A stretch of DNA of 61,733 nt from a bacterium (GCA_043803945.1 JAZDJN010000003.1:1-61733); one strand, 5' to 3'; positions 32,723 to 52,190 are shown, counted from the stretch's first letter. The notes: a model not told the origin generated them from the letters alone. Translations and numbers: made by a program.

Positions 32723-34921
32723 GTGTTCCAACAAAGACGACATCCCGATTTCTTTTCTCTAAAAACCTTTTTCGCTCTTCTCTTGCTCTCAATAGTAGTT
32801 GTAGCAACGGCCTCAACGCAATCGAAGGAAGATTGCATTGCCTGCCATAACGATAAATCGTTATCGATGGAGAAGAAAGGGAAACAGGTTCCTCTTTATG
32901 TTGATGGGTCTATTCTAAGTTCTTCAGCCCATAAGAAATTGGTGTGCGTCGCCTGTCACACTGGTTTCGATGCCGGCAACGTGCCGCATAAAGAAAAAAT
33001 TGAACCAATTAAATGTACGCTCTGTCACAAAGATGCCGCGCTGAAGCACGCATTCCATTCGGAAATGATAAAATCCGCGGAGGCGGGTGAAGGCAAAGGC
33101 GTGAGCTGCAAAAATTGTCATGGGACGCATGATGTATCTTCGAGCAAAAGTGCAAACGCGAGCAAGGGAGGGAAGGGGCTTACTGAGACTTGTGGAAAGT
33201 GCCATGCATCGGTCAAAGAAACATTCATGAGCTCCCAGCATGCGAAGGCTCTCGCACAGAATATCCCCGGGGCTCCATCCTGTATCACTTGCCATCAGAA
33301 CAATGTAACGAAAACCACGGCGACACTCGATTCTACTCAACTCAAGATTGCTCAGGAAAAGTTATGCTTGTCCTGCCATCTGGATGATCCAGCAGTACGA
33401 GCACGAATTTCTCCTAGTGCCGGATTCATTGCATCGTACCAGGCAAGTGTTCATGGGATGGCATTAAATGGTGGAAACGTAAAAGCAGCCAATTGCATCG
33501 ACTGCCATGGAAGTCATGAGATGCGAACAGGTACAGATCCGAAATCTCTCGTGAATAAGATGCACATTCCGCAGGTTTGTGCAAAATGTCATGCAAAGAT
33601 TTCAGCGGCCTATAATGCGAGCGTCCATGGAAAGGCCCTTCTCAATGGAAGTAATGAATCGCCGGTCTGTACAAATTGTCACGGTGAACATAATATCCTG
33701 AAACATACCGATCCACACTCACCCGTCTCAGCTCAGAACGTCTCTTCGCAAGTGTGTTCGCCCTGTCATAGCTCAGTCCGATTGTCGGAGAAATACGGGC
33801 TTGCCTCAGACCGATTTAAGAGTTTTGAAGATAGTTTTCATGGCCTGGCCGGAAAAGCTGGATCGCTTGTCGTTGCAAACTGTGCAAGCTGTCATGGTGT
33901 CCACGATATCAAACCATCCGGCGATCCAGAGTCAAAAATCCATAAGACGAATCTCATTGCGACGTGCGGAAAATGTCATCCAGGTGCTAATGAGAATTTC
34001 ACCAAAGGTGCTGTGCACGTGATCGTCACTGAAAAACAGGAAGATCTCCTCTATTTCATATCGACAGCCTACGTTATTCTTATCATCATGGTTGTGGGAG
34101 GAATGTTACTCCATAATCTTATGGACTTTGTCAAGAAATCGAAGCGTCAGTTAATGTATCGGCGAGGATTGTTGGAACATAAGCATGTCAGCCATCGCCT
34201 GTATTTACGCATGTCCTTCAGCGAACGAATCCAACATGCATCGCTGCTTGTCAGTTTTATCACCCTCGTTCTCACCGGTTTTGCTCTTCGGTATCCAAAT
34301 GCATGGTGGGTAGCACCCTTCAATGATATTATTCCTTCAGCATTTGAGTGGCGGGGTGTTCTACATCGAATTGCTGCAGTAGTCCTGGTCGCCGCAAGCG
34401 TCTATCATATCTACTATGTGCTCTTTATCCCGAGAGGGAAGGAGTTGATTCGAGACTTACTCCCTCGGATCCAGGATGGAAAAGATGCTCTTGCTGTGCT
34501 TAAGTATAATCTTGGTTTCTCAAGGGAGAAGCCCAGGTTTGACCGGTTCAGCTACATCGAGAAGAGCGAATATTGGGCACTTGTGTGGGGAACTGTGGTC
34601 ATGGGAGTCACCGGCGTGATCCTCTGGTTCGATAATACCTTCCTTGGCCTTCTGACAAAACTCTGGTGGGATGTTGCACGTACGATCCACTACTATGAAG
34701 CATGGCTTGCAACACTCTCGATAATTGTCTGGCATTTCTACTTCGTCATTTTCAATCCCGATAGTTATCCGTTAAACCTGGCATTCTGGAAGGGAACGCT
34801 GACCGAAGAAGAAATGGAAGAGGAACATCCGCTTGAACTGGAAAAGATACGAAGAGAGGAATTTATTAAAGAGATCCAGGAAGGCTTTGAAACGAAGCAA
34901 CAACAGAATGACCAGCACTGA
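32723..34921 (+). CDS. CbcL-like fusion: 13-heme cytochrome c domain plus FdnI/HydC-type di-heme cytochrome b
   Basis: 13 CxxCH counted; membrane domain with ERIQH, LHRIAA, YIEKSEYWA..WG, IHYYEA..A...I.VWH. Confidence 0.85.
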   Translation: MFQQRRHPDFFSLKTFFALLLLSIVVVATASTQSKEDCIACHNDKSLSMEKKGKQVPLYVDGSILSSSAHKKLVCVACHTGFDAGNVPHKEKIEPIKCTLCHKDAALKHAFHSEMIKSAEAGEGKGVSCKNCHGTHDVSSSKSANASKGGKGLTETCGKCHASVKETFMSSQHAKALAQNIPGAPSCITCHQNNVTKTTATLDSTQLKIAQEKLCLSCHLDDPAVRARISPSAGFIASYQASVHGMALNGGNVKAANCIDCHGSHEMRTGTDPKSLVNKMHIPQVCAKCHAKISAAYNASVHGKALLNGSNESPVCTNCHGEHNILKHTDPHSPVSAQNVSSQVCSPCHSSVRLSEKYGLASDRFKSFEDSFHGLAGKAGSLVVANCASCHGVHDIKPSGDPESKIHKTNLIATCGKCHPGANENFTKGAVHVIVTEKQEDLLYFISTAYVILIIMVVGGMLLHNLMDFVKKSKRQLMYRRGLLEHKHVSHRLYLRMSFSERIQHASLLVSFITLVLTGFALRYPNAWWVAPFNDIIPSAFEWRGVLHRIAAVVLVAASVYHIYYVLFIPRGKELIRDLLPRIQDGKDALAVLKYNLGFSREKPRFDRFSYIEKSEYWALVWGTVVMGVTGVILWFDNTFLGLLTKLWWDVARTIHYYEAWLATLSIIVWHFYFVIFNPDSYPLNLAFWKGTLTEEEMEEEHPLELEKIRREEFIKEIQEGFETKQQQNDQH

Positions 34922-34939
34922 GCTGATTGCTGAAATCGG

Positions 34940-36988
34940 ATGATGAATAAACTGCTGCACATACTACGGCATACATTGAGTCAACGTGCACTACATTTTT
35001 TAACAAGAGCCATTCTCTTTGGAACTATGATCGCGGGAAGTTCGCACCTCCGTGCTCAGGAAAACAGCGATTGCTTTGGATGTCATTCGGATAAAAGTCT
35101 CTCTGGCACCCGGAAGGGAAAAACGATTTCAGTCTTTGTGGATGAGAAAAAATTCGCTGGTTCAATCCATGGTTCGCTCACATGTATTTTCTGCCATAAG
35201 GATCTTGAAGGAAAAGAATTTCCACACGCCGAAGTCCTATTGCCAGTGAAGTGTGGAGAGTGTCACCAGGCAGAGGAGGAACTCCACGCGAAATCCCTCC
35301 ATGGCAAAGCGATAAAACGGAATGATCCGCTTGCACCGACCTGTAAAGAATGTCATGGCACTCACGATATCCTTCCTAAAAGCAATCCAAAATCGACCGT
35401 TGCAGTATTGCAAATCCCGTTTTTGTGCGGAGGTTGCCACAAAGAAGGTTCTCCCGTTCAGCAGCAGCGAACGATCCATCAAGACCATATTCTTGAGAAC
35501 TTCTCTGAAAGTATACACGGCGAAGGATTATTGCGAAAAGGCCTGATTGTTGCGCCAAACTGCGCTTCATGCCATACGGCACATTCAATCTTACCACACA
35601 CTGATCCAGTTTCGTCGATTGCCCGGAAGAATATTTCCAAGACCTGCACAAAATGTCATGCACTCATCGAAACCGTCCATCGGAAGATCATCAAAGGAGA
35701 GTTGTGGGAAAAAGAGGCAAATACCCTTCCTGCCTGCATCGATTGCCATCAGCCGCATAAAGTGCGCAAGGTATTCTATTCACAGAGTTTGGCAGATCGG
35801 GATTGCCTGAAATGTCATGAGAAGAAGGATCTCAAATCTTCAAAAGACGGCTGCTCGCTCTACACCCAGCCAAGTGAGATATCCTATTCACGCCATTCGA
35901 AAGTTGCATGTAGTCAATGCCACTCTGAGGTGAATGCTTCGCACCTGAGGCCGTGCGATTCCATCACGAAAAAAGTGGATTGTGCCGCTTGCCATGCAGA
36001 TGCCGGCCAGCTATTCCAGAAGAGTACCCATGGACAACTCACTGCCAAGAACGATCCCAACGGTCCCACATGCAAAGAATGTCACGGAACACATGGGATC
36101 AGAGGCAAGTTGGATCCCTCATCGCCGATATTTGCCATCAACATCCCCGAACTTTGTGCACGATGCCATCGCGAAGGAGAGAAGGCGGCAGTTCGCTATG
36201 CAGGCGGGCAGCATGAGATTATTGAGCATTACACAGAAAGTATTCATGGTAAAGGCTTGAAGAAAAGCGGATTGACTGTGACAGCGACCTGTACTAGCTG
36301 TCACACGGCTCATAGCGTCTTACCGAAGTCGGACTCTCTTTCAAGTGTCTACCGCAGCAATCTTCCGGCGACATGCGGACGCTGCCACCATGGAATCCAG
36401 GAGCAGTTTGAAAAGAGTATTCACGCTGTGCTCGTCAATGAGACGAAGAAAGAACTTCCTGTCTGTGCAGATTGCCATAGTGCTCACACAATCAGCCGCG
36501 CTGATGAATCAGGATTCAAGCTGACCATCATGACGCAGTGCGGACGGTGTCACGAAGGGATTGCAAAAACTTATTTTGACACGTACCATGGCAAGGTGTC
36601 TCAACTTGGATATACGAAGACCGCAAAGTGCTATGATTGCCACGGCGCGCATGACATCTTGCGGATTACCGATCCACGCTCGCATTTGAGCCGGGGAAAT
36701 GTCGTTCAAACCTGTCAGAAGTGTCACCCGGGTGCCAACCGGAGATTTGCCGGATATCTCACCCATGCAACACATCATGATCCGGCAAAATATCCTGTGC
36801 TCTTCTGGGTCTTCTGGGGGATGACCTCTCTCTTAATAGGGACGTTCACTCTCAGCGGAATTCATACACTCTTGTGGTTACCCCGTGCTTTGCAGATGCG
36901 TCGTGAGCTGAAAAAGAAACATCAATCCGGACCAAAACCAATTGAAGGGAAAGATCACAGCAGTGACAACTCCAATGCCAATGCCTGA
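34940..36988 (+). CDS. 19-heme cytochrome c with C-terminal membrane anchor (CbcA/CbcL c-domain-like)
   Basis: 19 CxxCH counted; signal peptide; TM helix FWGMTSLLIGTFTLSGIHTLLW. Confidence 0.88.
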   Translation: MMNKLLHILRHTLSQRALHFLTRAILFGTMIAGSSHLRAQENSDCFGCHSDKSLSGTRKGKTISVFVDEKKFAGSIHGSLTCIFCHKDLEGKEFPHAEVLLPVKCGECHQAEEELHAKSLHGKAIKRNDPLAPTCKECHGTHDILPKSNPKSTVAVLQIPFLCGGCHKEGSPVQQQRTIHQDHILENFSESIHGEGLLRKGLIVAPNCASCHTAHSILPHTDPVSSIARKNISKTCTKCHALIETVHRKIIKGELWEKEANTLPACIDCHQPHKVRKVFYSQSLADRDCLKCHEKKDLKSSKDGCSLYTQPSEISYSRHSKVACSQCHSEVNASHLRPCDSITKKVDCAACHADAGQLFQKSTHGQLTAKNDPNGPTCKECHGTHGIRGKLDPSSPIFAINIPELCARCHREGEKAAVRYAGGQHEIIEHYTESIHGKGLKKSGLTVTATCTSCHTAHSVLPKSDSLSSVYRSNLPATCGRCHHGIQEQFEKSIHAVLVNETKKELPVCADCHSAHTISRADESGFKLTIMTQCGRCHEGIAKTYFDTYHGKVSQLGYTKTAKCYDCHGAHDILRITDPRSHLSRGNVVQTCQKCHPGANRRFAGYLTHATHHDPAKYPVLFWVFWGMTSLLIGTFTLSGIHTLLWLPRALQMRRELKKKHQSGPKPIEGKDHSSDNSNANA

Positions 36989-37838
36989 AACAGTTGAATC
37001 GACTGAAAGAGCTGAAAAACAATATCTTCGCTTCACTCGGCTGAATCGCATTTTGCACGTCATTATGATTATTAGTTTTATCAGCCTGGCGTTGACAGGA
37101 ATGACACTCAAATTTTCGTACACAGACTGGGCATCCTTCCTTTCCCATTTCTTTGGGGGATATGAATCAGCCGGGTATGTCCATCGCGTCGCCGCGGTCT
37201 TCATGGTCGGCATCTTTATTGCCCATCTTGTGGATCTCACACGACGGAAACGGCGTGAATATGGTACTTGGAAGGCATTGATCTTCGGTCCGGATTCTCT
37301 GCTGTTTAATAAAAAAGATCTTCATGATTTTATTGGTTCGATGAAGTGGTTTCTCGGGAGAGGCCCCAAACCAGAGTATGGCCGTTGGACCTATTGGGAG
37401 AAGTTCGACTACATCGCAGTGTTTTGGGGAATTTTCGTTATCGGCTCGACCGGATTTACTCTCTGGTTCCCCGAATTATTCACTTTGATTTTCCCGGGCT
37501 GGATGATTAACGTTGCAACCATTATTCACAGCGATGAAGCGCTGCTTGCTACCGGCTTCATTTTCACAATTCACTTCTTCAATACCCATCTGCGCCCGGA
37601 AAAATTTCCCATGGACATCGTCATCTTTACCGGAAGGATGACCATTGAAGATTTGCAATTCGATAAACCTGCGGAGTACGATGCTGCTGTTAAAAGTGGA
37701 AAGCTGCTGGAGAGGCTCGTTGAACCGTATCCTCCCATCGTCATACGGGCGATACGTATTTTTGGATGGACAGCGCTTTCAATTGGCTTCAGCATGGTTA
37801 TTTGGATTATTTATGCTATGTTGTTCGCATATCGCTAA
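36981..37838 (+). CDS. FdnI-type di-heme cytochrome b, partner of the 19-heme protein (start 36975 or 36981)
   Basis: RF...NRILH, HRVAA...AH, YWEKFDY.AVFWG, IIHSDEALLATGFIFTIHFFNTH.RPEKFPMD; overlaps the upstream stop. Confidence 0.85.
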   Translation: MPETVESTERAEKQYLRFTRLNRILHVIMIISFISLALTGMTLKFSYTDWASFLSHFFGGYESAGYVHRVAAVFMVGIFIAHLVDLTRRKRREYGTWKALIFGPDSLLFNKKDLHDFIGSMKWFLGRGPKPEYGRWTYWEKFDYIAVFWGIFVIGSTGFTLWFPELFTLIFPGWMINVATIIHSDEALLATGFIFTIHFFNTHLRPEKFPMDIVIFTGRMTIEDLQFDKPAEYDAAVKSGKLLERLVEPYPPIVIRAIRIFGWTALSIGFSMVIWIIYAMLFAYR

Positions 37839-37914: not shown

Positions 37915-39405
37915 ATGAAGCGTTTTTTCCCAACCTCATTCTACAATCCTGCAACGTATGTGGGCGTTGCGATTGCGGCAGTCAGTTTTGGCCTGATTCT
38001 CTTCCTCATGCTTCTGGAAGCGTTGACCGAAAACCCGAAGCCGTATATGGGGATTATCGCCTTTGTCATTCTCCCAGGAATATTATTGCTGGGTTTAGGC
38101 GTTGCGTTGTTCGGCGTATTTCGAGAACACAGGCGTGAAAAAAGGGGAGTAGCACATGAACACACTCTGCCCCGAATCGACTTGAATGATCCCCGTCATC
38201 GCAGAACGTTTATCATTGTCTCCAGCGGGCTTCTTCTTCTGTTATTATTTTCAGCATTTGGAAGTTTTAAAGCCTATGAGTATACCGATTCCGATGCATT
38301 CTGCGGAGAGACGTGCCACAAAGTGATGAATCCGGAGTATACGGCATATCAGTCATCACCTCATGCCCGAGTCGGGTGTGTCGAATGTCATATCGGTTCA
38401 GGAACCACGTGGTTTGTACGGTCCAAACTTTCCGGGGCCTACCAGGTCTATGCAACGATCTTTAATAAGTATCCCCGTCCAATTCCGACACCAATTCAGA
38501 ATCTGCGCCCTGCTCAGGAAACCTGCGAACATTGCCACTGGCCAAAGCACTTTTTCAGCGAGAAACAACTAGAAAACACATATTTTCTCTCCGATGAAAA
38601 GAATACCCGCTGGAATCTGAATTTGCTGATCAAAATAGGCGGTGGAAACGCCGAAGCTGGACCAACATCGGGAATCCATTGGCATATGAATATCTCGAAT
38701 GAGGTCACATATGCTGCGGCCGATACACAGCGCCAGACAATCCTTTGGGTAAAGACAAAAAATGCTGCAGGGGAAGAGGTTATCTATCGGAATACTGAAA
38801 CACAAATTTCAAAAGAAGAGATTGCAGCACTTCCTGCGCGAAAGATGGATTGCATCGATTGTCACAACAGGCCTTCTCACATCTATCATCCACCGAAGAA
38901 GTCTGTGAATCATGTGATGTCTCTTGGCTGGATTGACCCCTTGTTGCCGAATATCAAGAGCCTGGCAGTAAAAGTTCTGGAATATCCTTACAGCACACAA
39001 GCCGCCGCACTTGACAGTATTCAATTGACGATTAGCCAGCACTATATAGAGAACTTTCCGGCGGCTGCAGCATCCAAAGCCAAAGAGATCGATCGAGCAA
39101 TTATGGAAATTCAAAAGATCTACAGTCGAGGGTATTTCCCTGAGATGAACGTTGACTGGAAAAAATTCCCGAATAATATCGGTCATATGTACTATCCGGG
39201 ATGTTTCCGATGCCATGATGGAAAACATGTCTCAGAGACGGGGAAGGTGCTTTCGAGAGATTGTAATATTTGTCATGTTGTCTTAGCACAGCAGTATGAA
39301 AAGGAGAAAGTGAACATCTCGCTGAAAGGTATCGACTATCGTCACCCGGTCGACATCGGTGATGCGTGGAAAACGATGAATTGCAGCGATTGCCATAATG
39401 AGTAG
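37915..39405 (+). CDS. NapC/NirT-domain heptaheme inner-membrane quinol dehydrogenase, ImcH-like
   Basis: 3 N-terminal TM helices; FCGETCH (CX3CH) plus 6 CxxCH; M.PEY..Y..SPHA.V.CVECHIG, GIHWH, CIDCHNRPSH. Confidence 0.85.
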   Translation: MKRFFPTSFYNPATYVGVAIAAVSFGLILFLMLLEALTENPKPYMGIIAFVILPGILLLGLGVALFGVFREHRREKRGVAHEHTLPRIDLNDPRHRRTFIIVSSGLLLLLLFSAFGSFKAYEYTDSDAFCGETCHKVMNPEYTAYQSSPHARVGCVECHIGSGTTWFVRSKLSGAYQVYATIFNKYPRPIPTPIQNLRPAQETCEHCHWPKHFFSEKQLENTYFLSDEKNTRWNLNLLIKIGGGNAEAGPTSGIHWHMNISNEVTYAAADTQRQTILWVKTKNAAGEEVIYRNTETQISKEEIAALPARKMDCIDCHNRPSHIYHPPKKSVNHVMSLGWIDPLLPNIKSLAVKVLEYPYSTQAAALDSIQLTISQHYIENFPAAAASKAKEIDRAIMEIQKIYSRGYFPEMNVDWKKFPNNIGHMYYPGCFRCHDGKHVSETGKVLSRDCNICHVVLAQQYEKEKVNISLKGIDYRHPVDIGDAWKTMNCSDCHNE

Positions 39406-39453: not shown

Positions 39454-40194
39454 ATGAAAAAGTTTTTTTCTTCCATACCGGAGTCGCTCAGCAGGCTGAT
39501 GATTGTGTTTGCTGTCATCATTGGGCTAGCTCTTTTAGTTCGTGCCCTCCTTCCCGCTGCTTTGAAAGATACGACACTTCAGCGGGAAGCGACTGTACAT
39601 GCTGAACAGGCGAAGCCAATACACTTTGTCGGTGCTCTGCAGTGCAACGAATGTCATGAACAGAATAAAGTCAAGGGCAGAGGATACCACGGCAATCTCT
39701 CATGCGAAACGTGCCACGGACCAGGGAAAGATCACATTGAGAATCCGGGAGAAGTCAAGCCGGAGCTCCCGCGCAAGCGAGAGTTTTGCACCAATTGTCA
39801 TGCATATAATCCGTCACGACCGACAGGCTTTCCGCAGATCAACCCGGCAATGCACAATCCATTAAAGCCCTGTATCTCGTGCCACAATCCTCATGATCCG
39901 AAACCGCCGAATGTTCCGCAGGAGTGTGAAGCGTGCCATGCCGAAATCGCGCGAACGAAATCTCTCTCATCTCACGTTCAGTTGGAATGTTCAGCATGTC
40001 ACGCAGTGCCGCGGGAACACAAGGTTACACCACGGCTTGTAGATGCATCAATGCCAAGAGACAGGGCGTTCTGTGGTAAATGTCACAGCAAGGATTCCCA
40101 GGTGCGCGATGTACCGAAAGTTGATATCGCTGCGCATGGAGAAAAATATCTCTGCTGGCAGTGTCATTATCCACATATGCCGGAGGTCGACTAA
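39454..40194 (+). CDS. Membrane-anchored octaheme cytochrome c
   Basis: 8 CxxCH; N-terminal TM helix; SD GAAGGAGG. Confidence 0.88.
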   Translation: MKKFFSSIPESLSRLMIVFAVIIGLALLVRALLPAALKDTTLQREATVHAEQAKPIHFVGALQCNECHEQNKVKGRGYHGNLSCETCHGPGKDHIENPGEVKPELPRKREFCTNCHAYNPSRPTGFPQINPAMHNPLKPCISCHNPHDPKPPNVPQECEACHAEIARTKSLSSHVQLECSACHAVPREHKVTPRLVDASMPRDRAFCGKCHSKDSQVRDVPKVDIAAHGEKYLCWQCHYPHMPEVD

Positions 40195-40195: not shown

Positions 40196-40936
40196 ATGAA
40201 CCGGAGAAATTTTTTCGAGAAACTTAAGAATCTTGGCTTACTGACTGGATTTGCCGGAATCTTTACCAGACAAGCCTCGGCAAACACACCGGAAGGGTAT
40301 GATGCCAAAGATCATTATTATGGCATGGGAATTCAGATCGACAAATGCATCGGCTGCGGTATGTGTGTGTCGGCATGTAAAAAGGAAAACGCTGTACCAA
40401 AGGAACCGTTCTTTTTCAGGACGTGGGTCGAACGATATTTGATCCGAACGAATGAAGAGACAATCGTCCAGAACATCACTCATTCGACACCGACGAGCGA
40501 TACCTCAGGAGATAAGAAGTTTTTGCGAAGTTTCTTTGTTCCGAAACTCTGTAATCAATGCGATAATCCTCCATGTGTGCAGGTGTGTCCGGTAGGAGCC
40601 ACGTTTAAGACTGAAGATGGTGTGATCCTTGTTGATGATACCCGCTGTATCGGATGCCGCTATTGTATTCAGGCATGTCCGTATGGAGCCCGCTACCTCC
40701 ATCCGGATAGGATGACAGCAGACAAGTGTACCTTCTGTTACCATCGTATTACAAAGGATTTGCTGCCGGCCTGTGTTGAGGTGTGTCCTACACAAGCCAG
40801 AATCTTTGGCGACTTAAAGCGGAGTGCAAGCCCGCTCACACGATTCAGACGGATGAACAAACTCCATGTCCTGAAACCATTTTTGAATACAGAACCCAAA
40901 GTGACGTATTCAAATCTTGATGGGGAGGTGCGCTAA
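40196..40936 (+). CDS. Tat-exported 4x[4Fe-4S] ferredoxin-like subunit (NrfC/DsrO/PsrB family)
   Basis: Tat signal MNRRNFF; CIGCGMCVSAC, CNQCDNPPCVQVCP, CIGCRYCIQACP, KCTFC...PACVEVCP. Confidence 0.92.
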   Translation: MNRRNFFEKLKNLGLLTGFAGIFTRQASANTPEGYDAKDHYYGMGIQIDKCIGCGMCVSACKKENAVPKEPFFFRTWVERYLIRTNEETIVQNITHSTPTSDTSGDKKFLRSFFVPKLCNQCDNPPCVQVCPVGATFKTEDGVILVDDTRCIGCRYCIQACPYGARYLHPDRMTADKCTFCYHRITKDLLPACVEVCPTQARIFGDLKRSASPLTRFRRMNKLHVLKPFLNTEPKVTYSNLDGEVR

Positions 40937-42162: not shown

Positions 42163-42639
42163 GTGATGTGTGAGCAAATGAACGAACAAACTAAATTCGG
42201 AAATAAGGAACGGAAGCGGAGGGAGTTTCTCGAATACATCCTCGGTGGAGGAGTTCTTGCCTGGTTGGTTTCCATCCTCTATCCGATAATTGCGTTTCTT
42301 CAACCGCCAAAAGAAGGTGGAGTAGAGGTCACCAGTGTCAAGGCGGGAAAACTGGAAGAAATCGAAAAGGACAGTGGCAGGATTATTAAATTCGGGAACA
42401 AACCGGTTCTGCTGATTCGAACCGCAGACGACCAACTGCGGGCGTTCACTGCTACCTGTACACACCTTGACTGTACAGTCCAATTTAAGCGTGACGCAGG
42501 AATTATTTGGTGTGCGTGTCATAATGGCAAATACGATTTGAATGGAAAGAATATTGCCGGACCGCCGCCCAGGCCCCTTGAAGAGTACCGGGTCACGCTC
42601 CAAGGCAATGAGATATTCATTTCGAAAAAGGTGAAATGA
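42163..42639 (+). CDS. Rieske [2Fe-2S] subunit of a Rieske/cytochrome b complex (start may be 42166 or 42178)
   Basis: RREFL Tat-type anchor; CTHLDC and CACH boxes; GPPPRPL. Confidence 0.92.
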
Positions 42640-43712: not shown

Positions 43713-45187
43713 AAATAATTACTCGCACTCTTTGCCACACACTTTTGCTGGTTCTAACGGTGCAGGTGTGTTTCGCGCAACAGCGGACCTCTCAACGGGA
43801 TGAATGTTTTCAATGTCATCGCAGCCTGGAGGACAAGCCATCGGCACTATTCAGCACGGATGTCCATTTTCAAAAGGGACTGGGCTGCGCAGCTTGCCAT
43901 GGAGGTGATCCGACAAAAGGCGACAACGAACTGGCAATGAGCAAGACATCCGGTTATATCGGTGTTCCGAAGAGAGACGCGATTTCCACGATGTGTGCCT
44001 CGTGTCATGGCGATGCGACGAAAATGAAATCCTACAAGTCATCGCTGCCGACCGATCAATGGGAGAATTTAAAGAAAAGCGTCCATGGTAAATCGTCGAC
44101 AGCAGCAAAACAGCATGTTGCCCAGTGTACCACATGTCACAGCGTTCATAATATCAGCGCGGTAAAGAGTCCAGCTTCACCTGTTCATCCCCTGAATGTT
44201 GTCCAGACCTGTTCCAAGTGTCATGCCGATGTTGCTTTAATGCGTACCTATAATCCATCTCTCCCCGTCGATCAGCTCGAAAAATACAAGACAAGTGTAC
44301 ATGGGATGAAGCATGCAAAGGGTGATGCTAAAGTTGCTCAATGTGCCAGTTGTCACGGAAGCCATGATATTCGTTCGGCGAAAGATGTGAAGTCGAAAGT
44401 GTATGGGGTGAATCTTCCGGAGACTTGCGGCAACTGCCACAGCGATTCTCGATATATGAAGGAATACGGCATCCCTACCAATCAACTGGAGAAATTCAAG
44501 AAGAGCGTTCATGGTGTGGCGTTGCTGCAAAAGAAGGATCTTGGTGCACCGGCTTGTAATGACTGTCACGGAAATCATGGAGCAGTACCGCCCGGTGTGC
44601 AGTCCATTTCGAACGTCTGTGGAACATGCCATTCTTTGAATGCCGATCTCTTCTCATCCAGTCCTCATAAAAAAGCTTTTGATGATAAAAAACTGCCCGA
44701 ATGCGAAACTTGTCATGGTAATCACGAGATTATCACTGCGACGAACCAATTACTCGGCGTTACTCCGGAAGCGGTTTGCTCACGATGCCATCAGCAAACG
44801 AACAACGTAAAAGGGTATCAGGTTGCAGGGACGATGAGAGCTTTGATCGATAGTCTTGAATCTTCTACAAAAAAAGCTAACATTCTGATCGAAAATGCTG
44901 AACAACGAGGTATGGAAGTATCCGATGCAGCATTCAAACTTCGCGATGCTCGGCAAGCGCGGCTGCAAGCCCGCACGATGGTGCATTCATTTAGTGAACA
45001 GAAATTCCGCGACGTGGTCCAGCAGGGACTGACAATTGCTCACGATGTTCAGTTGGAGGGCAGCGAAGCGATTGATCAGTATTACTTCCGTCGATGGGGA
45101 TTGGGTATTGCATCGCTTATCATAACAATCTTGGCTGTATCACTGTATTTATTTATCAGAAAAATTGAACGGAAACAGATTCCATAA
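43700..45187 (+). CDS. 11-heme cytochrome c with coiled-coil stalk and C-terminal TM anchor (cytochrome c subunit of the Rieske/b complex)
   Basis: ATG 43700 gives a signal peptide ending CFAQ; 11 CxxCH; C-terminal [23 protein letters not shown]. Confidence 0.88.
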
Positions 45188-45226: not shown

Positions 45227-45733
45227 ATGAAAACTTTTCGTATCCTTGGAATGCTATTGATCGTTGTGTTCCTCGCTGCCCTCTGTCTGCAGGCGCAGAA
45301 TAAAAACGTTGGGGTAAAAATATGCAAAATGTGCCATCAAACAGAGAAACAAGGCAAGCAATTCGGTATCTGGGAAAAGACCCCGCATGCTGAAGCGTTC
45401 AAAACACTCGCCTCGGAGAAGGCAATGGAAGTTGCAAAGAAGAAAAACATTGCCAAGCCACAGGAAGCAAAGGAATGTCTCGATTGCCACTCTCCAATAG
45501 ATAAGGATGGCGTGTCCTGCGAGAATTGCCACGGTGCAGGTTCTGCTTACAAGACCATGGCGATCATGAAGGATAAGGCAAAAGCGATTGCTGCTGGATT
45601 AACCGACTTCAAAGATAAGGCAGCAATCGAGAAATTCTGCAAAACCTGCCACAACGAAAAGAGTCCGACATTTAAAGGATTCAAATTCGACGAAATGTGG
45701 GGCAAGATTAAGCACTCGGTGCCTAAAGCATAA
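45227..45733 (+). CDS. Small periplasmic tetraheme cytochrome (c554-like family)
   Basis: Signal peptide; VG...CKMCH...W..TPHA.AF, CLDCH, GVSCENCHGAGS, CKTCHN..SP; Lys-rich. Confidence 0.88.
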   Translation: MKTFRILGMLLIVVFLAALCLQAQNKNVGVKICKMCHQTEKQGKQFGIWEKTPHAEAFKTLASEKAMEVAKKKNIAKPQEAKECLDCHSPIDKDGVSCENCHGAGSAYKTMAIMKDKAKAIAAGLTDFKDKAAIEKFCKTCHNEKSPTFKGFKFDEMWGKIKHSVPKA

Positions 45734-45785
45734 GCAACAGAAATTGCTTCTCCGGATAGTTCATAACATCGTTTGAGCAGTATAA

Positions 45786-45944: not shown

Positions 45945-47270
45945 ATGGCTACTACTATGAAAATACCATTACAACTTCTGTGTTTTCTGATCATTGCATC
46001 GACCTGCAGTTATGCACAGCGGTTCCAGGCTCGCTTTGTGACCTCGGCGTATGCGTGGGAACGATATGATGCAGTTGGCACATCAACTCAACATCTCTTC
46101 GGCTATCAGACAGTTCAACTTTCGTTAGCGAAGAAAGATCTTTTTCTCGGAACCTATCTCCAGGGATTCAACGATTTCACCGGGCCGGTGCAGAACGATG
46201 CCTATGTCCGGCTCTACAATTTTTATGGAAAATGGTCGAACATCGGTGGATTCGGAGACCTCAGCGCAGGCCGACAAGCGATCTTTGCAGGGATCGGCAA
46301 TGGCACGATTGACGGAGCTGCTGCCTCTGTCAAAATGTTTGATAATCGCGTCAAACTCATGGGGTATTATGGTTCCTTGCCGCCGCCGCGTCAAAAGATT
46401 AGCCTGACAGATGATGCTTCGAATAATATGATGATGGGAACCCAACTGGTTGCTTCGGCAGGAGAGGTTGCCCAGGTTTCTGTGAGCTACATGAAGCGAA
46501 AGATCGCCACTGAATCCTATAAAGCAATCCGGCGTGATTCTCTCTTCAATCCCTATACAATTGAAATCAAACCTTCGGCTGGAGTTGAAGAACTGGTGGG
46601 AGGCGATCTCAATCTTACGGCTGGAAATTTCATCTCAGGATATGCGCGCTATGACTATGACGCACTCGCCGAAAAAATGGCACGTCTGCAATTCTTCGGA
46701 CGCGTACGACCCTTTGAGTATTCCAATGTCAAAGCGCTATCATCGCTGAGTCTCACAGGCGAATATATTCAGCGGGAACCGAGATTATCCTATAACTCGA
46801 TCTTTTCAGTCTTTGCATTTAATACCCTGAAAGAATATGAGGTGGGAGCTGAATATGCCTTTACTCCAACCTGGCAAGCATTCGCAAAATACGGTTCAGT
46901 GAACTACGGCGATGAAGACGATCAACGTCTTACACTCGGATTGAACGCTGACCATGTTTCTTTCAGCTTTTCACACAGTGTGGGGTATGCCGGTGAACTA
47001 AGCGCGGCGTCGTTCAATGTTGGCTATCCGATTCTTGACAATCAGGTAGTTCCGACGCTCTTCTTCAGCTATGCCAAATATAAATTGAGCGAAGATGCCA
47101 AAGACCTTGATGGTGCGATCAGTGCAGGGATGGGAGTTGTATACCGTCCGGTACCGACATTCTCCATTGAAACACAAGGTCAATGGATCCAGAATAAAAT
47201 TTATTCCAATGATAAAAGACTCTTCATCCGTATCAGTTATTTCTTTTCACAACAACTAGCAATATTCTAG
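45945..47270 (+). CDS. Outer-membrane beta-barrel, putative porin of a porin-cytochrome complex (start 45945 or 45957)
   Basis: Signal peptide ending SYAQ; RLYN.Y, AGRQ, IDG, amphipathic strands, terminal Phe; immediately precedes two multiheme genes. Confidence 0.75.
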   Translation: MATTMKIPLQLLCFLIIASTCSYAQRFQARFVTSAYAWERYDAVGTSTQHLFGYQTVQLSLAKKDLFLGTYLQGFNDFTGPVQNDAYVRLYNFYGKWSNIGGFGDLSAGRQAIFAGIGNGTIDGAAASVKMFDNRVKLMGYYGSLPPPRQKISLTDDASNNMMMGTQLVASAGEVAQVSVSYMKRKIATESYKAIRRDSLFNPYTIEIKPSAGVEELVGGDLNLTAGNFISGYARYDYDALAEKMARLQFFGRVRPFEYSNVKALSSLSLTGEYIQREPRLSYNSIFSVFAFNTLKEYEVGAEYAFTPTWQAFAKYGSVNYGDEDDQRLTLGLNADHVSFSFSHSVGYAGELSAASFNVGYPILDNQVVPTLFFSYAKYKLSEDAKDLDGAISAGMGVVYRPVPTFSIETQGQWIQNKIYSNDKRLFIRISYFFSQQLAIF

Positions 47271-47281
47271 AGTGAACGTAC

Positions 47282-48514
47282 ATGAAAAAGCCACTCTCCC
47301 GAATTTCAGACACCTTTGTTACTTGTGCATCCATGCTTTGCATGGTTCTTCTCCTTGGATTGTATTCCGCTGAATCAGCATTCGGTGAGACACAAAAAAT
47401 CCGTGAGGAAAAGACCATAAAATTTTCGCATCTCAAGCATGTGAAAGATGCCGGAATTGAATGCGTCGATTGCCATAAAGCGGCTACGACGAGCAAACTC
47501 TCCTCCGACAACCTCCGCAGTTCTCATGAGAATTGCCAAAGCTGCCATGAGGATCAGCTCAATAAAACTTGCACATTCTGCCACACAAGCGAAAATCAGG
47601 ATACCTATCAGGCAAAAGAACCTCCTGACAGGAAACTTGTATTTTCCCATGAGTTTCATCTGGGGAAAGAGAAGATGGAATGTATCACCTGTCATCAGAA
47701 TGTTCCGGAAGCAGATGACGAGGTAACAATCCATGTTCCGAAAATGACAATATGCAATACTTGTCATAACGACGCGAAAGCATCCAACTACTGTGAAGGA
47801 TGCCATACCGATCTTTCTTCGTTACGGCCGAAAGAACATAATCGGACAAACTTTGTACGGGAACATAAAATTGAAGCCCGTCTCTCTACTCAAACCTGTT
47901 CAACCTGCCATACACAGGAATCCTGCCTGGATTGCCACAGCGGCAGCGATCTGCAAAAGTCTAGTGTGAAAGGAGGAGATTTGGTGTCTCCACGTTCTCC
48001 ACGGCTGATGGCAATCGATCGCGGTCAAGGGAACCGGTTGATTAAAGTCCATGATGCAAATTTCAAGATGACGCATGGGGTCTCTGCGAAATCAAAAATG
48101 ATTGAATGTCAAACATGCCACGAGCAAAAGACATTCTGTTCAACCTGCCACGAAGCCGGAGGCAATGTGAATCAGTCAGGCTTTAGACCCGATTCACATG
48201 CCAAAGCCGATTTTATCAGACTCGGTATTGGTTCTGGAGGTGGTCAGCATGCGACACTTGCTAAGCGAGATATCGAAACCTGTGCCAGTTGCCACGATGC
48301 TGAGGGTGCCGATCCTGCATGTGTGCATTGCCATACCGATGCCGATGGAATCAAGGGAACGGATCCAAAAACCCATACACGAGGTTTTATGGCCTCCAAT
48401 AACGGTGAGTGGCATACCGATCCCGGATCGACATGCTATATGTGTCACAACGATGCGAACGCTCGTGTTGGCGGTATTAAAGGACGAAACTTCTGCGGCT
48501 ATTGTCATAAGTGA
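47282..48514 (+). CDS. 14-heme periplasmic cytochrome c (c3/c7-like N-terminal repeats)
   Basis: 14 CxxCH; KFSH..H...IECVDCH and VFSH..H...ECITCH c7-like motifs; signal peptide. Confidence 0.9.
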   Translation: MKKPLSRISDTFVTCASMLCMVLLLGLYSAESAFGETQKIREEKTIKFSHLKHVKDAGIECVDCHKAATTSKLSSDNLRSSHENCQSCHEDQLNKTCTFCHTSENQDTYQAKEPPDRKLVFSHEFHLGKEKMECITCHQNVPEADDEVTIHVPKMTICNTCHNDAKASNYCEGCHTDLSSLRPKEHNRTNFVREHKIEARLSTQTCSTCHTQESCLDCHSGSDLQKSSVKGGDLVSPRSPRLMAIDRGQGNRLIKVHDANFKMTHGVSAKSKMIECQTCHEQKTFCSTCHEAGGNVNQSGFRPDSHAKADFIRLGIGSGGGQHATLAKRDIETCASCHDAEGADPACVHCHTDADGIKGTDPKTHTRGFMASNNGEWHTDPGSTCYMCHNDANARVGGIKGRNFCGYCHK

Positions 48515-49744
48515 GTGATGATCATGAAACGAATCTCTTTCAATCCGATACTATTCATTGCTTGTGTACCATTTATTCTGTTAATGCTGGCTGGATGCAG
48601 CGAGCTCAAGGATGAACTCCCTGCACCTACAGCCGGGCAGATTGCCATCCACACTGACGGATGGGATCAGCTTGCGTCGGCAAATTTCCATGGCAAAGCA
48701 TTGAAGCTCAATAGCTATAAACGGGACGATTGTGCTGCTTGTCATTCGAAACAGTTTACCGGCGGCATTAGCGGCAATTCCTGTTACAAATGCCATAACG
48801 CCTATCCACATTGGATCAATCCGGCAGAACCCCCGGACCACAGGGCGTATCTAAAAAAATATAAGTGGGATATTGAGCAGTGCGATGATTGCCATGGATC
48901 GAATTATTCCGGAGGAACTAGCGGACAATCATGTTTCGGTTGCCACAAGCAGTATCCTCATGCGGTAAATTATAAATCGGGCCATGCTCCTGCACTCGTG
49001 GCAGCATCATATCCATTGAACGAGTGCAAAACTTGCCACGGTTCGACATTTCAAGGGGGAGCAACGGTAGATGTTTCCTGCTCCAAATCCGGATGTCACA
49101 TGGATGCATCTGGCGTGGCAAAATCTCCTGAAGCATGCAACACGTGTCACGGAAATTTCTCTGCTCCGGCTAACGACCTTCTCTCTGCAGCCCCGCCAAA
49201 GAGTGTTGCAGGTGGAACTTCCATAACCGAAAGAGGAGTTGGTGCTCATCAGGCACATCTCGTAACTACTGTATTAGGGAAGACTGTGAAATGTGCTGAG
49301 TGCCATACAATTCCAGCCAGTCTCTCGGCTGCCGGCCATCTGGATGCATCTCCTCAGGCAGAAGTTGTTTTCAATGATACACTGGCCAGAGTACGAAGCG
49401 CTGGCATTATACCTGTTCCGTCGTACAGCGGCACTTCGATGACGTGCAATAATTCCTATTGTCATGGAAATTGGAAAATTCGAAAGGCAACCTCCTCATA
49501 TCAGTACGTCTTTTCTGATTCTGTCATGGTTGGAGCAAATGACTCACCGGTGTGGACTGGAGGTCAGGCTGAAGCAGCATGTGGCAGTTGCCATGGCATT
49601 CCGCCGAAGGGTCACGTCGCAGCTTCACTTATCATTTGTCAGGGATGTCATACTGGTGTTGTTGATGAGTTTGGAAAGATTATCGATAAATCAAAACATA
49701 TCAATGGAAAGATAAATGTCTTTGGTCAGGAGAGGGCCATTTAA
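48515..49744 (+). CDS. Multiheme cytochrome c lipoprotein with CxxxxCH/CxxCH motifs, putative outer-surface cytochrome (start 48515-48524)
   Basis: Lipobox LAGC; 9 CxxCH plus CSKSGCH and CNNSYCH (CX4CH); GAH..H, W...CGSCHG.PP..H, HING. Confidence 0.88.
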   Translation: MMIMKRISFNPILFIACVPFILLMLAGCSELKDELPAPTAGQIAIHTDGWDQLASANFHGKALKLNSYKRDDCAACHSKQFTGGISGNSCYKCHNAYPHWINPAEPPDHRAYLKKYKWDIEQCDDCHGSNYSGGTSGQSCFGCHKQYPHAVNYKSGHAPALVAASYPLNECKTCHGSTFQGGATVDVSCSKSGCHMDASGVAKSPEACNTCHGNFSAPANDLLSAAPPKSVAGGTSITERGVGAHQAHLVTTVLGKTVKCAECHTIPASLSAAGHLDASPQAEVVFNDTLARVRSAGIIPVPSYSGTSMTCNNSYCHGNWKIRKATSSYQYVFSDSVMVGANDSPVWTGGQAEAACGSCHGIPPKGHVAASLIICQGCHTGVVDEFGKIIDKSKHINGKINVFGQERAI

Positions 49745-49847
49745 TCCGACCCATTCTCAAATTTGACAGAGGCCTCCAAATTCTTTCTACAACATAAGAG
49801 TGAAGAGGGTAACGAAGCTATAACGGACATCAGAATCTGAAAATATG

Positions 49848-49877
49848 AGCCATTCCGCAATAGAGTGGCTTTTTTTT
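49848..49877 (+). terminator. Rho-independent terminator after the cytochrome genes
   Basis: AGCCATTC-loop-GAGTGGCT followed by a T-run. Confidence 0.75.
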
Positions 49878-49890
49878 GCCTATTAGTCTG

Positions 49891-49906: not shown

Positions 49907-49940
49907 CATATTCACATTAAACTTTTAAGGCTAAAAGAAT

Positions 49941-52190
49941 ATGATTGGTCAAATTGCAATTTGGGTTGGTTTTCTTGGTGCGGCGATTTCAGCGTTTGCC
50001 TATTACCGGGTATCTCAGGGTAATGATTCGATGCAAAAATTTGCACGCAACGGATTTGCTGTAACGTTCGGGTGTACCCTCGCTGCTTCAGTGCTGCTGA
50101 TGCTCTACATCATGCAACACCGCTTCGAGTACGATTATGTCTGGAGCTATAGTTCACGGGATCTGCCAACAGCACTTCTCATCACAACATTTTGGGCCGG
50201 GCAGGAGGGAAGCTTCCTCCTATGGGCGTTTTGGAGCATCTTTATCGGCATAGTTCTTCTCCGCTCTTCAAAAAAGAATAAAAACGAATCGGAAGTGATG
50301 GCGGTTTATATGTCGATTGTCGCTTTTCTTCTGCTCCTCGTCGCCGTTAAATCTCCCTTCAAATACATCTGGAATGTCCATCCGAATGACGTTACTGTCG
50401 GTCAAATTCCGAATGATGGAAGGGGACTAAATCCATTGTTGCAGAATTTTTGGATGCTCATCCATCCTCCAATTCTTTTCATTGGATTTGCGGCACTTGC
50501 CGTTCCATTTTCATTCGCAATTGCGGCGCTCTGGAAAAAGCAATACCAACAATGGATCTCCGCAGCCTTGCCATGGGTTTTATTTGGAGCACTCTCACTT
50601 GGTGCAGGGCTAATCCTTGGCGGCTACTGGGCGTACGGTGTCCTCGGTTGGGGAGGCTGGTGGGGCTGGGATCCAGTCGAGAACTCCTCTCTCGTTCCAT
50701 GGATTGTATCTATTATTCTTATTCATTCGATTCTCACTCAACGAAAAACCGGCCGGCTCGCAAGAACAAATTTTGCCCTCGCCGTGACGGGATTCTTTCT
50801 TGTGGTCTACAGCACGTTCCTTACACGGAGTGGTATTCTCGGTGATTCATCGGTGCATTCTTTTGTCGATCCGGGAGCATTTGCCTACACACTCCTTATC
50901 GTGTGGCTGGTTCTTACAGCGCTTCTCGGCTTCGGACTTCTTGGAAAACGCTGGAAAGATTTAACCTCTCCTGCAGGTCATAGTCATCTCTTTTCTCGCG
51001 AGGGTTTCCTCGCTCTTGCCAGTGTGGTTATGGGAGCAAGTGCACTTGTTGTATTCTTCGGTACTAGCCTGCCAATCGTTTCGAAAATCACCGTTGAGCC
51101 AAGTTTTTATGACAGAACAAATCTCCCTCTCGCTATTCTGATGGGTGTATTGCTAAGTTTCAGTTTGCTCCTCCAATGGAGCATCCAGGGTGGTAAGGAA
51201 ACATTCAAAAAGGCATTCATTGCGCTTGGAGCGGCTCTGGTCGTTACGATCATTCTCATCATCGTTGGTTTGAATGACTGGCGGATGATTCTGTTCGCCT
51301 ATAGTTCATTGGTTGCATTCTTCTTGAATATCGAGACCGGGCTGAGGCTGGCAAAGCAAAATATTCAGTGGGTGGGAGGACCTATTGCCCATGTGGGACT
51401 GGCACTGCTCTTCCTCGGAATCATAGGTTCGGGCCGCTATGGCGAGAAGGTTAATGTTTCGCTGCCATTGCACGAGCAAAAAGAGGCGCTGGGATATACC
51501 TGGACTTATTTGGGCTCTAAACAGAATTCTGAAGGTAAGAGTGTCTTCACCATTAAAGGTGAGCGAAACGGCTCCGTGTTAACTCTGGAACCGGTCATGT
51601 ATATGAGTTCGTACAACAACAATATTATGCGCAATCCTGATTACGTTAGTCTTCTGACAAAGGACCTCTATCTGGAACCGGTATCACTCGAGCAACCGAA
51701 CGAATCCGAAGCGAAATCAATGGATACATATAACCTGAAAAAAGGAGAGCCCATATCGATTCAGGGAGTACAGGTGACCTTCCTCCGCTTCGAAATGGGC
51801 GCCCATGGGAAAGATGGCATGATGGGAGGCAGCCAATTTGGAATCGGCGCAGTATTGGAAGTCCGGAAAGGGACGAAGACCGAACAGCTTACTCCTGTCA
51901 CATTTTTCCAGGGTCAGAATATCGAGCGAATGGATGCGGCGATGTTGAAGGACAGCAGTCTTGGATTTCAGATGCTTAAAATGAACATCAATATGGAGAA
52001 TAAGGAAGCTCTTGTTCAAATACAGGTGGTGAAACCTGGAGCAGCCGCTCCATCCAGTTCGAACAAAGAAATCCTTATTGTGGAAGCGAGCGTGAAACCC
52101 TTTATTACACTCGTCTGGTTTGGAGCATTCTGTATAATCCTGGGACTTGGGATTTCAATTTATCGTCGCCGCCTGGGATTTGAATCTTAA
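49941..52190 (+). CDS. ccmF: Cytochrome c biogenesis heme lyase CcmF/NrfE (System I) with an extended C-terminal periplasmic domain
   Basis: WAGQEGS.LLW, G.GLNPLLQN..M.IHPP, WGGWWGWDPVENSSL.PW, FLTRSG...SVHSF, AHVG, KPFI..VW. Confidence 0.9.
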   Translation: MIGQIAIWVGFLGAAISAFAYYRVSQGNDSMQKFARNGFAVTFGCTLAASVLLMLYIMQHRFEYDYVWSYSSRDLPTALLITTFWAGQEGSFLLWAFWSIFIGIVLLRSSKKNKNESEVMAVYMSIVAFLLLLVAVKSPFKYIWNVHPNDVTVGQIPNDGRGLNPLLQNFWMLIHPPILFIGFAALAVPFSFAIAALWKKQYQQWISAALPWVLFGALSLGAGLILGGYWAYGVLGWGGWWGWDPVENSSLVPWIVSIILIHSILTQRKTGRLARTNFALAVTGFFLVVYSTFLTRSGILGDSSVHSFVDPGAFAYTLLIVWLVLTALLGFGLLGKRWKDLTSPAGHSHLFSREGFLALASVVMGASALVVFFGTSLPIVSKITVEPSFYDRTNLPLAILMGVLLSFSLLLQWSIQGGKETFKKAFIALGAALVVTIILIIVGLNDWRMILFAYSSLVAFFLNIETGLRLAKQNIQWVGGPIAHVGLALLFLGIIGSGRYGEKVNVSLPLHEQKEALGYTWTYLGSKQNSEGKSVFTIKGERNGSVLTLEPVMYMSSYNNNIMRNPDYVSLLTKDLYLEPVSLEQPNESEAKSMDTYNLKKGEPISIQGVQVTFLRFEMGAHGKDGMMGGSQFGIGAVLEVRKGTKTEQLTPVTFFQGQNIERMDAAMLKDSSLGFQMLKMNINMENKEALVQIQVVKPGAAAPSSSNKEILIVEASVKPFITLVWFGAFCIILGLGISIYRRRLGFES

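Follow-up and report, generated by a model that had tools for sequence, protein, structure and literature searches.

The inner-membrane outlets ImcH, CbcL and CbcBA of Geobacter are scattered over the genome and were discovered singly. In ImcH, the distal ligand of haem 1 is a conserved Gln. In the outer-membrane conduit of Shewanella, the barrel MtrB has 26 strands and the cytochrome MtrA ten haems. CbcL of Geobacter sulfurreducens (GSU0274) is a protein of 619 amino acids (aa) with nine haems and six transmembrane (TM) segments (PMC6295460 supplement). Among the Ignavibacteria, an outer-membrane porin-cytochrome (pcc) unit has been known since 2014 from Ignavibacterium album, where IALB_1840-1837 encode a periplasmic c-type cytochrome, a porin, the 14-haem cytochrome IALB_1838 (400 aa) and the outer-membrane cytochrome IALB_1837, for which atypical CXnCH motifs are reported (PMC4245776). 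Homologues of ImcH and CbcL followed in 2018, with three and two, respectively, in the Ignavibacteriae (Table 1 of PMC6295460), and further porin-cytochrome clusters appear in Ignavibacteria metagenome-assembled genomes (MAGs; PMC7399161, PMC6137239, PMC6344600). The locus analysed here lies on a bacterial contig of 61,733 nucleotides (nt; GCA_043803945.1, JAZDJN010000003.1), the whole of which constitutes the window, and consists of 15 genes, g01 to g15, between positions 32723 and 52190. In it, a porin-cytochrome unit, a module of NrfCD type, a Rieske/cytochrome b module and homologues or analogues of ImcH, CbcL and CbcBA share what is probably a single operon.

All 15 genes lie on the plus strand in a listing of open reading frames (ORFs), and eight of them (g01, g02, g04, g05, g10, g11, g13 and g14) encode multihaem cytochromes with, in gene order, 13, 19, 7, 8, 11, 4, 14 and 11 haem-attachment motifs. 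Of these 87 motifs, in a count of CX2-4CH, 84 are canonical CXXCH; g04 contributes a single CX3CH and g14 two CX4CH. When the genome (5.54 Mb in 118 contigs, completeness reported as 100%) was scanned from stop to stop, 13 ORFs had at least three CXXCH, holding 125 motifs; as eight of these 13, with 84 motifs, sit in the cluster, the concentration of haem genes is not due to chance. The seven other genes encode, according to Pfam and NCBIfam, an FdnI/b561-like cytochrome b, an NrfC-like 4Fe-4S protein, NrfD, a Rieske protein, a cytochrome b in which b6 and subunit IV are fused, a beta-barrel and CcmF. An earlier note, made from the sequence alone, had proposed this inventory, with five inner-membrane modules, a gene order mirroring the cell envelope and an Ignavibacteria-like host, and on all these points it stands: gene content and domain layouts support the modules, and the closest relatives are Ignavibacteria MAGs. 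Its description of the genes as tightly packed applies to g01-g11, where the spacing is -14 to +76 nt, and to g12-g14 (0 to 11 nt), but not to the gaps of 211 nt 5' of g12 and 196 nt 5' of g15. Likewise, the FdnI-type and bc-type cytochromes b that it counted are indeed separate genes, but the C-terminal b561 domain inside g01 (PF01292) had been overlooked. The true starts of g03 (about 36975), g06 (40196, from the RRNFF motif of twin-arginine translocation (Tat)) and g10 (about 43700) lie downstream of the maximal frame, and g12 starts at 45945 or 45957.

The reading preferred here, to which a probability of roughly 0.6 is given, is that the cluster passes respiratory menaquinol electrons outwards through alternative modules and one outer-membrane conduit. 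Up to five separable inner-membrane modules (g01; g02+g03; g04; g05-g07; g08-g10) would oxidise menaquinol and reduce periplasmic haems, the c554-like tetrahaem g11 would be the likely soluble carrier, and the 14-haem g13 would thread the plug-less barrel g12 across the outer membrane, with g14 as a candidate component on the cell surface (Table 1). The modules may divide the work by acceptor redox potential, with mineral oxides, humics or electrodes as putative acceptors, as the earlier note proposed. Relatives in the class Ignavibacteria are described as enriched on anodes and, according to PMC7399161, several studies found the class relatively abundant in anode biofilms; Fe(III) reduction by Melioribacter roseus is described in the literature.

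Table 1. Genes of the cytochrome cluster and candidate transcription signals, in window order
Feature	Coordinates	Strand	Assignment	Basis
sigma-54-like element	32645..32658	+	Candidate -24/-12 element GGCAC-N5-TTGC, 65 nt 5' of g01	Consensus match only
g01	32723..34921	+	Predicted CbcL-type fusion: signal peptide, 13 CXXCH, cytochrome b561/FdnI-like membrane domain	Motifs, PF01292
g02	34940..36988	+	Cytochrome c with 19 haems and a single TM helix at the C-terminus; predicted c-half of split CbcL-type protein	19 CXXCH, TM 620-638
g03	36975..37838	+	FdnI-like cytochrome b with four TM-like segments; predicted b-half	TIGR01583 E 6e-8
g04	37915..39405	+	Predicted ImcH-type inner-membrane heptahaem quinol oxidase	3 TM, 7 haems, NapC/NirT
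g05	39454..40194	+	Octahaem cytochrome c, N-terminal anchor or signal	8 CXXCH, TM 15-33
g06	40196..40936	+	Predicted Tat-exported NrfC/DsrO/TtrB-like protein with four clusters	MNRRNFFEK N-terminus, 16 Cys
g07	40936..42153	+	NrfD-family integral membrane subunit, predicted quinone-interacting	PF03916 E 1.5e-42
g08	42163..42639	+	Rieske 2Fe-2S protein, N-terminal TM anchor	PF00355 E 3.7e-13
g09	42636..43712	+	Cytochrome b, b6 and subunit IV in one chain	PF00033 E 1.6e-50, PF00032 E 1.5e-11
g10	43700..45187	+	11-haem cytochrome c, C-terminal TM anchor, in c1/f position	11 CXXCH, TM 468-486
g11	45227..45733	+	Periplasmic tetrahaem cytochrome, c554-like	4 CXXCH, PF13435 E 5e-11
g12	45957..47270	+	Predicted outer-membrane beta-barrel, about 22-24 strands, plug-less	AlphaFold2 (AF2) model, predicted local distance difference test (pLDDT) 81.4
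g13	47282..48514	+	14-haem cytochrome c, predicted inside barrel	14 CXXCH, complex model
g14	48515..49744	+	11-haem lipoprotein cytochrome, candidate surface component	9 CXXCH + 2 CX4CH, lipobox LAGC
hairpin	49847..49871	+	Terminator-like, between g14 and g15	9-pair stem then TTTTTTT, consensus scan
g15	49941..52190	+	CcmF/NrfE-family haem lyase	PF01578 E 2e-33, PF16327 E 3e-19

The locus is a conserved, modular and class-wide trait, of which the window carries the fullest form. Relatives were taken as the best 80 of 566 confirmed loci from a scan of genome contigs with g09, mostly in Ignavibacteria/Bacteroidota MAGs (76-85% identity), with some in Calditrichota, Neomarinimicrobiota and Latescibacterota (61-69%). 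Full 10-kb flanks were present in 35 of the 80, comprising 26 close loci (cytochrome b at least 75% identical) and nine distant ones; counts of modules are lower bounds, because 10 kb upstream can miss g01 where extra modules are present. Among the close full-flank loci, g08-g10 are found in all 26, g04 in 25, g01 together with g04 and g08-g10 in 23, g02+g03 in 14 and g05-g07 in four. The pair g12+g13 occurs in 16, and the inner-membrane core of g01, g04 and g08-g10 is combined with it in 15. All five inner-membrane modules are present in three, and all five plus the barrel unit in two (L016 and L071); another locus, L018, which has shorter flanks, also contains all five. At the distant full-flank loci, g08-g10 occur in nine of nine, g11 in five, and g04 and the barrel unit in one. 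The barrel block can also lie upstream of the inner-membrane block (L075, L010 and L029), and the locus in the 'Stygiobacter electus' genome (L055) has g08-g10 only. A profile of the g12 barrel found 66 matching genomes among the 401 sampled from the phylum (E up to 1e-10); the matches listed all fall in the window's own class and include 17 of the 17 genomes of its own family, while two other families of the phylum, f21 and f29, gave none in 87 and 61 genomes, respectively.

The assignment of two modules to the CbcL type is sustained by domain layout, by PF01292 and by comparison with published homologues. In both g01 and g02 a signal peptide is followed by a periplasmic N-terminal multihaem c domain, of 13 and 19 haems, respectively; the dihaem cytochrome b of FdnI/HydC type is in the same chain in g01 and in a separate gene in g02+g03. 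The match of g01 to PF01292 (E 3.2e-15) spans residues 497-678, with TM-like segments over residues 445-636, and its sole match in a sequence search of the PDB is to a 278-aa 'Cytochrome c' (28pb_A, E 2.7e-6). Against the same Pfam family g03 scores 27.9 bits, just below the cut-off of 30.1; its first 14 nt lie within the end of g02. Identity is 27% between the c domains of g01 and g02 (E 9e-51) and 32% between the b domains of g01 and g03 (E 9e-32), with five His conserved between the latter two; on these alignments g01 and g02+g03 are tandem paralogues.

The 'CbcL homologues' reported from Ignavibacteria have 944-952 aa, 19 haems and six TM segments (Table S2 of PMC6295460). Their haem positions coincide with those of g02, and these proteins are g02 and g03 in fused form. 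Among the relatives, the pair is fused at six loci (frames of 929-952 aa; L006, L010, L018, L029, L061 and L070) and clearly split at 11 (L011, L012, L032-L034, L040, L043, L050-L052 and L071), at which the second frame has an offset of +1 or +2; three further loci are ambiguous, having intermediate frames or no nearby second frame. A sequencing frameshift was considered as the origin of the split in the window and rejected, since 11 further loci, counted at species level, show the split too, their second frames being shifted by 1 or 2. This recurrence with a varying offset argues for real gene fission instead of an assembly error, and the relatives thus form an apparent natural fission series of a CbcL-type protein. 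No evidence was found for g02+g03 being the orthologue of Geobacter CbcBA, which was compared by description only: the topology is the same, but there are 19 haems and not seven, and the fused orthologues group with CbcL.

The hallmarks of ImcH, as described in the sources consulted, are three TM helices, seven haem motifs of which the first is CXXXCH, and homology to NapC/NirT (PMC4251993; bioRxiv 10.1101/2023.05.03.539133). This defining layout is what g04 displays. Hydropathy peaks place its three N-terminal TM helices at residues 16-34, 47-65 and 98-116; a CX3CH at residue 130 is followed by CXXCH at 155, 204, 313, 430, 450 and 490; and residues 99-186 match the NapC/NirT family (PF03264, E 6.7e-12), with a further match to NrfH (TIGR03153, E 7e-15). 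Only NrfH (2j7a, E 4e-6) was retrieved from the PDB by sequence. The ImcH homologues of Ignavibacteria are 496-498 aa long (Table S3 of PMC6295460), with haem positions within about two residues of those in g04 and TM segments close to its three.

The set g05-g07 has no catalytic subunit in Pfam or NCBIfam. The best NCBIfam matches of g06 are TtrB (NF011569, E 4.9e-61) and DsrO (E 2.2e-53), and g07 is one of five NrfD matches in the genome. All NCBIfam equivalogs for the three proteins fall below their cut-offs, for instance DsrO with 181 against 200 and QrcC with 108 against 400, and by these scores the set is a family relative that is a member of no named complex. We take it to resemble Geobacter Cbc4 (CbcSTU).

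The module g08-g10 has a Rieske protein with the ligand boxes CTHLDC (residue 99) and CACH (residue 117), including the disulphide cysteines, and a cytochrome b with the four His haem ligands at 90, 104, 191 and 206, the Qo motif PEWY at 280 and no Cys. The latter, g09, is the genome's only cytochrome b of the bc type. There is no monohaem cytochrome c1 or f; in its place stands the C-terminally anchored 11-haem g10, which accompanies g08-g09 in 35 of 35 full-flank loci. Judged by its composition, this is a variant complex and not a canonical bc1 or b6f. The tetrahaem g11 accompanies g08-g10 at five of the nine distant loci, four of which have no barrel unit, so it appears to travel with the Rieske/cytochrome b module. 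Alternative complex III (ACIII) is given as the sole complex III of I. album in the paper on its genome (PMC3362086), an account in which no Rieske/cytochrome b complex is mentioned. A cytochrome b of I. album with GPWY, fused to a trihaem c7 domain, is cited in PMC4122944; g09 by contrast has PEWY and is unfused, so Ignavibacteria may hold more than one cytochrome b lineage.

The genes g12, g13 and g14 have the composition of a porin-cytochrome gene set, with a barrel next to a multihaem cytochrome and an outer-membrane multihaem lipoprotein. The barrel has no family in Pfam or NCBIfam, no match in a PDB sequence search at E up to 10, and only unnamed Ignavibacteriota clusters as its neighbours in the Atlas. 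An AF2 model built from 21 orthologues contains 24 strand elements, two of which are short, hence the estimate of about 22-24 strands. The best structural matches of this model are the 22-strand barrels of TonB-dependent transporters and the 24-strand FimD/PapC ushers (Z 18-20.5); MtrB (6r2q_B) ranks below these, with Z 15.7 and a root-mean-square deviation of 6.0 over 346 residues. As modelled, g12 is a wide plug-less barrel of the size class that houses a protein domain in its lumen.

The 410-aa g13, in which all 14 CXXCH are invariant in an alignment of 18 sequences, is placed inside this barrel in a predicted, haem-free complex with a score of 0.63, against 0.39 for the best control; 116 of 157 solved complexes reach the mark used for such scores, as do two of 215 mismatched pairs. 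Three runs showed at least 70% contact agreement and a partner pLDDT of at least 68, with contacts between residues 118-390 of g13 and alternate strand residues all round the barrel. This supports an MtrAB-like insertion of g13 into g12, in a model that may partly echo the solved MtrCAB. Apart from its lipobox, g14 is characterised by a GSu_C4xC__C2xCH domain (TIGR01904, E 4.7e-13); its putative position is on the cell surface.

Several observations weigh against outward transfer through this conduit. PF11854 (MtrB_PioB) does not match g12 at E up to 0.01 in Pfam, leaving no sequence tie to MtrB; the I. album porin is itself called 'distantly related to the rest', and I. album, which has an orthologous pcc unit, is reported to be incapable of growth with Fe(III) or Mn(IV) oxides (PMC4245776). 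The structure and complex models are haem-free. In g08, the residues after CxCH form the 'G-Y' signature, associated with a mid-range potential of about 200-260 mV by a rule given in PMC4122944, so the Rieske protein seems ill-suited as a donor to typical low-potential bis-His multihaems or oxides. Furthermore, the g08-g11 core is found in Calditrichota, Neomarinimicrobiota and Latescibacterota at loci with no barrel unit at all, which implies that it can serve other periplasmic acceptors. Finally, relatives of CbcL (MtoC/MtrH) are also described in Fe(II) oxidisers, and so kinship with CbcL does not fix the direction of electron flow.

The best-surviving alternative, though an unlikely one, is that the modules are general quinol:periplasmic-cytochrome oxidoreductases feeding soluble reductases (nitrite, N2O, cbb3), with the barrel a mere neighbour and the locus a spot where cytochrome genes have collected beside ccmF, not one pathway. 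The absence of the barrel unit beside g08-g10 at 10 of the 26 close and eight of the nine distant loci would fit this, as would the position of the barrel block on either side of the inner-membrane block and the status of g09 as the genome's sole cytochrome b of its type; moreover, in Caldithrix abyssi a Rieske/cytochrome b pair lies inside the Nap cluster, where it is the proposed donor to NapM or εHao (PMC5317091). However, genes of ImcH and CbcL type accompany the barrel unit at 15 of the 26 close loci, g01-g11 are tightly or translationally coupled, and Pfam and NCBIfam reveal no terminal reductase gene in the cluster. Nor is the cluster needed as an ordinary complex III, because another contig (C91) encodes ACIII, whose ActD domain continues into a fused monohaem cytochrome c domain, along with a caa3-type and a cbb3 oxidase; the same set of ACIII and oxidases is described in I. 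album (PMC3362086).

A second alternative is that the same hardware works inwards, with Fe(II), a cathode or a syntrophic partner supplying electrons that enter via g14, g13 and g12, whereupon the CbcL-type and Rieske/cytochrome b modules would either reduce quinone, in reverse and at the expense of the proton-motive force, or feed oxidases. The mid-potential signature of g08 suits a donor at the level of Fe(II) better than a low-potential oxide acceptor, and the genome has three haem-copper oxidases. Yet the ImcH-type proteins of Geobacter are described as quinol oxidases for the reduction of extracellular acceptors, and the descriptions of cultivated relatives are of heterotrophs reducing Fe(III), arsenate or nitrate; inward flow is regarded as improbable. 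That the five modules form one obligate supercomplex, a single new enzyme, is barely credible and was rejected in spite of the very tight packing and the stop/start overlaps, since modules come and go independently in relatives (g02+g03 being absent from 12, g05-g07 from 22 and g01 from three of the 26 close loci) and every module has its own quinone-interacting membrane subunit.

A bolder version of the preferred reading, outward transfer through alternative modules, can be put forward tentatively. In it, g08-g10 with g11 would be a proton-motive Q-cycle quinol oxidase wired directly to the porin-cytochrome conduit, making the locus a respiratory 'gearbox' with one outer-membrane wire. Were this true, there would be one energy-conserving outlet for high-potential extracellular acceptors and up to four lower-yield outlets (one ImcH-type, two CbcL-type and one NrfCD-type) for lower potentials, a set that lineages would tune through gain and loss of cassettes and through fusion or splitting of the CbcL-type protein.

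The shared core in relatives and the spread of the barrel mark the locus as a class-wide trait that is less novel than the earlier note had claimed. The five-module architecture recurs at close relatives, as counted above, and the pcc unit and the homologues of ImcH and CbcL had been published (PMC4245776, PMC6295460); porin-cytochrome genes had indeed been noted in Ignavibacteria (PMC4245776). A whole chain in one locus, as the note had it, is not supported either, given two octahaem cytochromes with C-terminal sorting domains of the type IX secretion system (T9SS) on another contig. A search of open-access full text, using one spelling of multiheme, found no description of the whole-locus architecture; in a multi-omics paper on Melioribacter (PMC5492636) multiheme, Rieske, porin, ferrihydrite, ImcH and beta-barrel are unmentioned and the abstract deals with aerobic and arsenate respiration, so that paper has no bearing on the locus. 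Hence the cluster is a well-preserved maximal variant, with its new content in the architecture and its parts of kinds already known. The related species amount to a natural 'deletion series' of the locus, in a phylogenetically distant and partly cultivable group, which makes testable the choice of quinol oxidase by acceptor redox potential, the feeding of extracellular electron transfer by a complex-III-type enzyme, and the comparison of fused with split cytochrome b/c proteins. The locus could also serve as a marker for putative mineral or electrode respiration in Ignavibacteria.

Transcription of g01-g14 probably starts from the sigma-54-type promoter at 32645, and we infer that these genes are co-transcribed. 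The exact pattern GGCAC-N5-TTGC occurs once in the window, 5' of g01, and an exact match precedes the g01 orthologue at seven of 21 examinable loci. With one mismatch allowed, the pattern is not enriched in the window (13 found, 11.5 expected), and no gene for a sigma-54 activator was seen among 23 scanned flanking proteins of the window. Sites resembling sigma-70 promoters are at background level (24 against 28.3 expected), as are terminator-like structures (24 against 18.9 expected), from which only the hairpin after g14 was used, as a lead. A sigma-54-like element with one mismatch, GGCACGAACATTGA, lies at 49892-49905 (+), 36 nt 5' of ccmF and just after this hairpin.

The hairpin in the g14-g15 gap suggests that ccmF is probably its own transcription unit, so that g15, a general haem lyase, would stand behind a terminator. 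It combines the Cytochrom_C_asm and CcmF_C domains of a System I CcmF and is the genome's only CcmF_C match, the other Cytochrom_C_asm match being a 249-aa frame on contig C103. As the genome's sole CcmF, it is housekeeping haem-maturation machinery and not a dedicated part of the system. The idea that g15 is an extra haem lyase for atypical motifs was rejected on the same ground.

Candidate parts of the chain also lie away from the cluster. On contig C61, a gene for a sigma-54 activator has beside it those for two octahaem cytochromes that carry MtrC-like domains and C-terminal sorting domains for T9SS; the contig also holds a second 13-haem/iron-sulphur/NrfD set, so not every candidate part is in the cluster; the octahaems could, from their domains, be secreted or surface cytochromes that extend the conduit. 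They are of 726 and 944 aa (L082:4088-6268 (-) and L082:6689-9523 (-)), both with a C-terminal FlgD_ig domain, and the 726-aa protein joins an MtrC/MtrF-like domain to a T9SS tail (Por_Secre_tail). A regulator with REC, sigma-54-activator and HTH domains is encoded nearby (L082:11011-12378 (-)). Elsewhere on this contig, three genes (L081:4161-5309, 5387-6022 and 11524-12195 (-)) show an unusual pairing of response-regulator receiver and glycine-cleavage H-protein (lipoyl-carrier-like) domains; they flank the second 13-haem/NrfD/iron-sulphur set and a HAMP histidine kinase.

Within the window, three genes at 24162-29845 (+) whose ends abut or overlap may, from the domains of their products, form a sensory unit: they encode a TonB-dependent receptor, a YfiR/HmsC-like protein (DUF4154) and a hybrid histidine kinase that carries HAMP, PAS and receiver domains. 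Just downstream of them lie a fusion of MaeB-type malic enzyme with PTA, and the cytochrome cluster. A BNR/YCF48-like repeat protein at 15667-17892 (+) has a T9SS C-terminal sorting domain, which confirms that the organism uses type IX secretion. In the region 58000-61733 the G+C content rises to 0.54, against about 0.46 elsewhere, over genes at the end of the contig for HsdM, the methylase of a type I restriction-modification system, and for a DUF1016 protein; this is probably a defence or mobile island.

Set against known systems, the individual modules each have a recognisable counterpart from which they depart. As in CbcL, MtoC and MtrH, a periplasmic multihaem c domain is joined in g01 to a dihaem cytochrome b membrane domain, and g02+g03, a multihaem c with a single TM helix at its C-terminus beside a cytochrome b of four TM segments, resembles CbcA/CbcB; unlike CbcL with nine haems and CbcA with seven, these proteins have 13 and 19, and here they are tandem paralogues. 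The layout of TM helices, haems and NapC region in g04 is like that of G. sulfurreducens ImcH (GSU3259), a likeness by description and not by direct alignment, whereas imcH of Geobacter is described as monocistronic (PMC4251993) and g04 belongs to a cluster of 14 genes in which further quinol oxidases follow immediately downstream of it. In common with Qrc and the NrfCD modules of ACIII type, g05-g07 pair a multihaem c with a periplasmic iron-sulphur protein and NrfD and have no catalytic subunit. The anammox R/b complexes are described as Rieske and cytochrome b with multihaem partners (PMC12954380); g08-g10 share with these, and with the Nap-linked pair of Caldithrix, multihaem partners and the absence of a monohaem c1 or f, but differ in that the partners are a C-terminally anchored 11-haem and a c554-like tetrahaem protein, adjoining a porin-cytochrome unit.

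The closest likeness in the outer-membrane part is to IALB_1840-1837 of I. album, g11-g14 having the same order and kinds of gene, including the atypical motifs in g14. In a MAG labelled I. album (L024), the order is kept, with identities of 55% for g12, 60% for g13 and 33% for g14; unlike that locus, the window adds g02+g03 and g05-g07. The account of the I. album cluster in PMC4245776 covers the four pcc genes and, within that account, leaves the upstream Rieske/cytochrome b, ImcH-type and CbcL-type genes unmentioned. In principle the predicted arrangement is that of Shewanella MtrCAB (PDB 6R2Q), with a cytochrome in a large barrel and a lipoprotein cytochrome outside, from which it differs in the approximately 22-24 modelled strands of g12 and the 14 haem motifs of g13.

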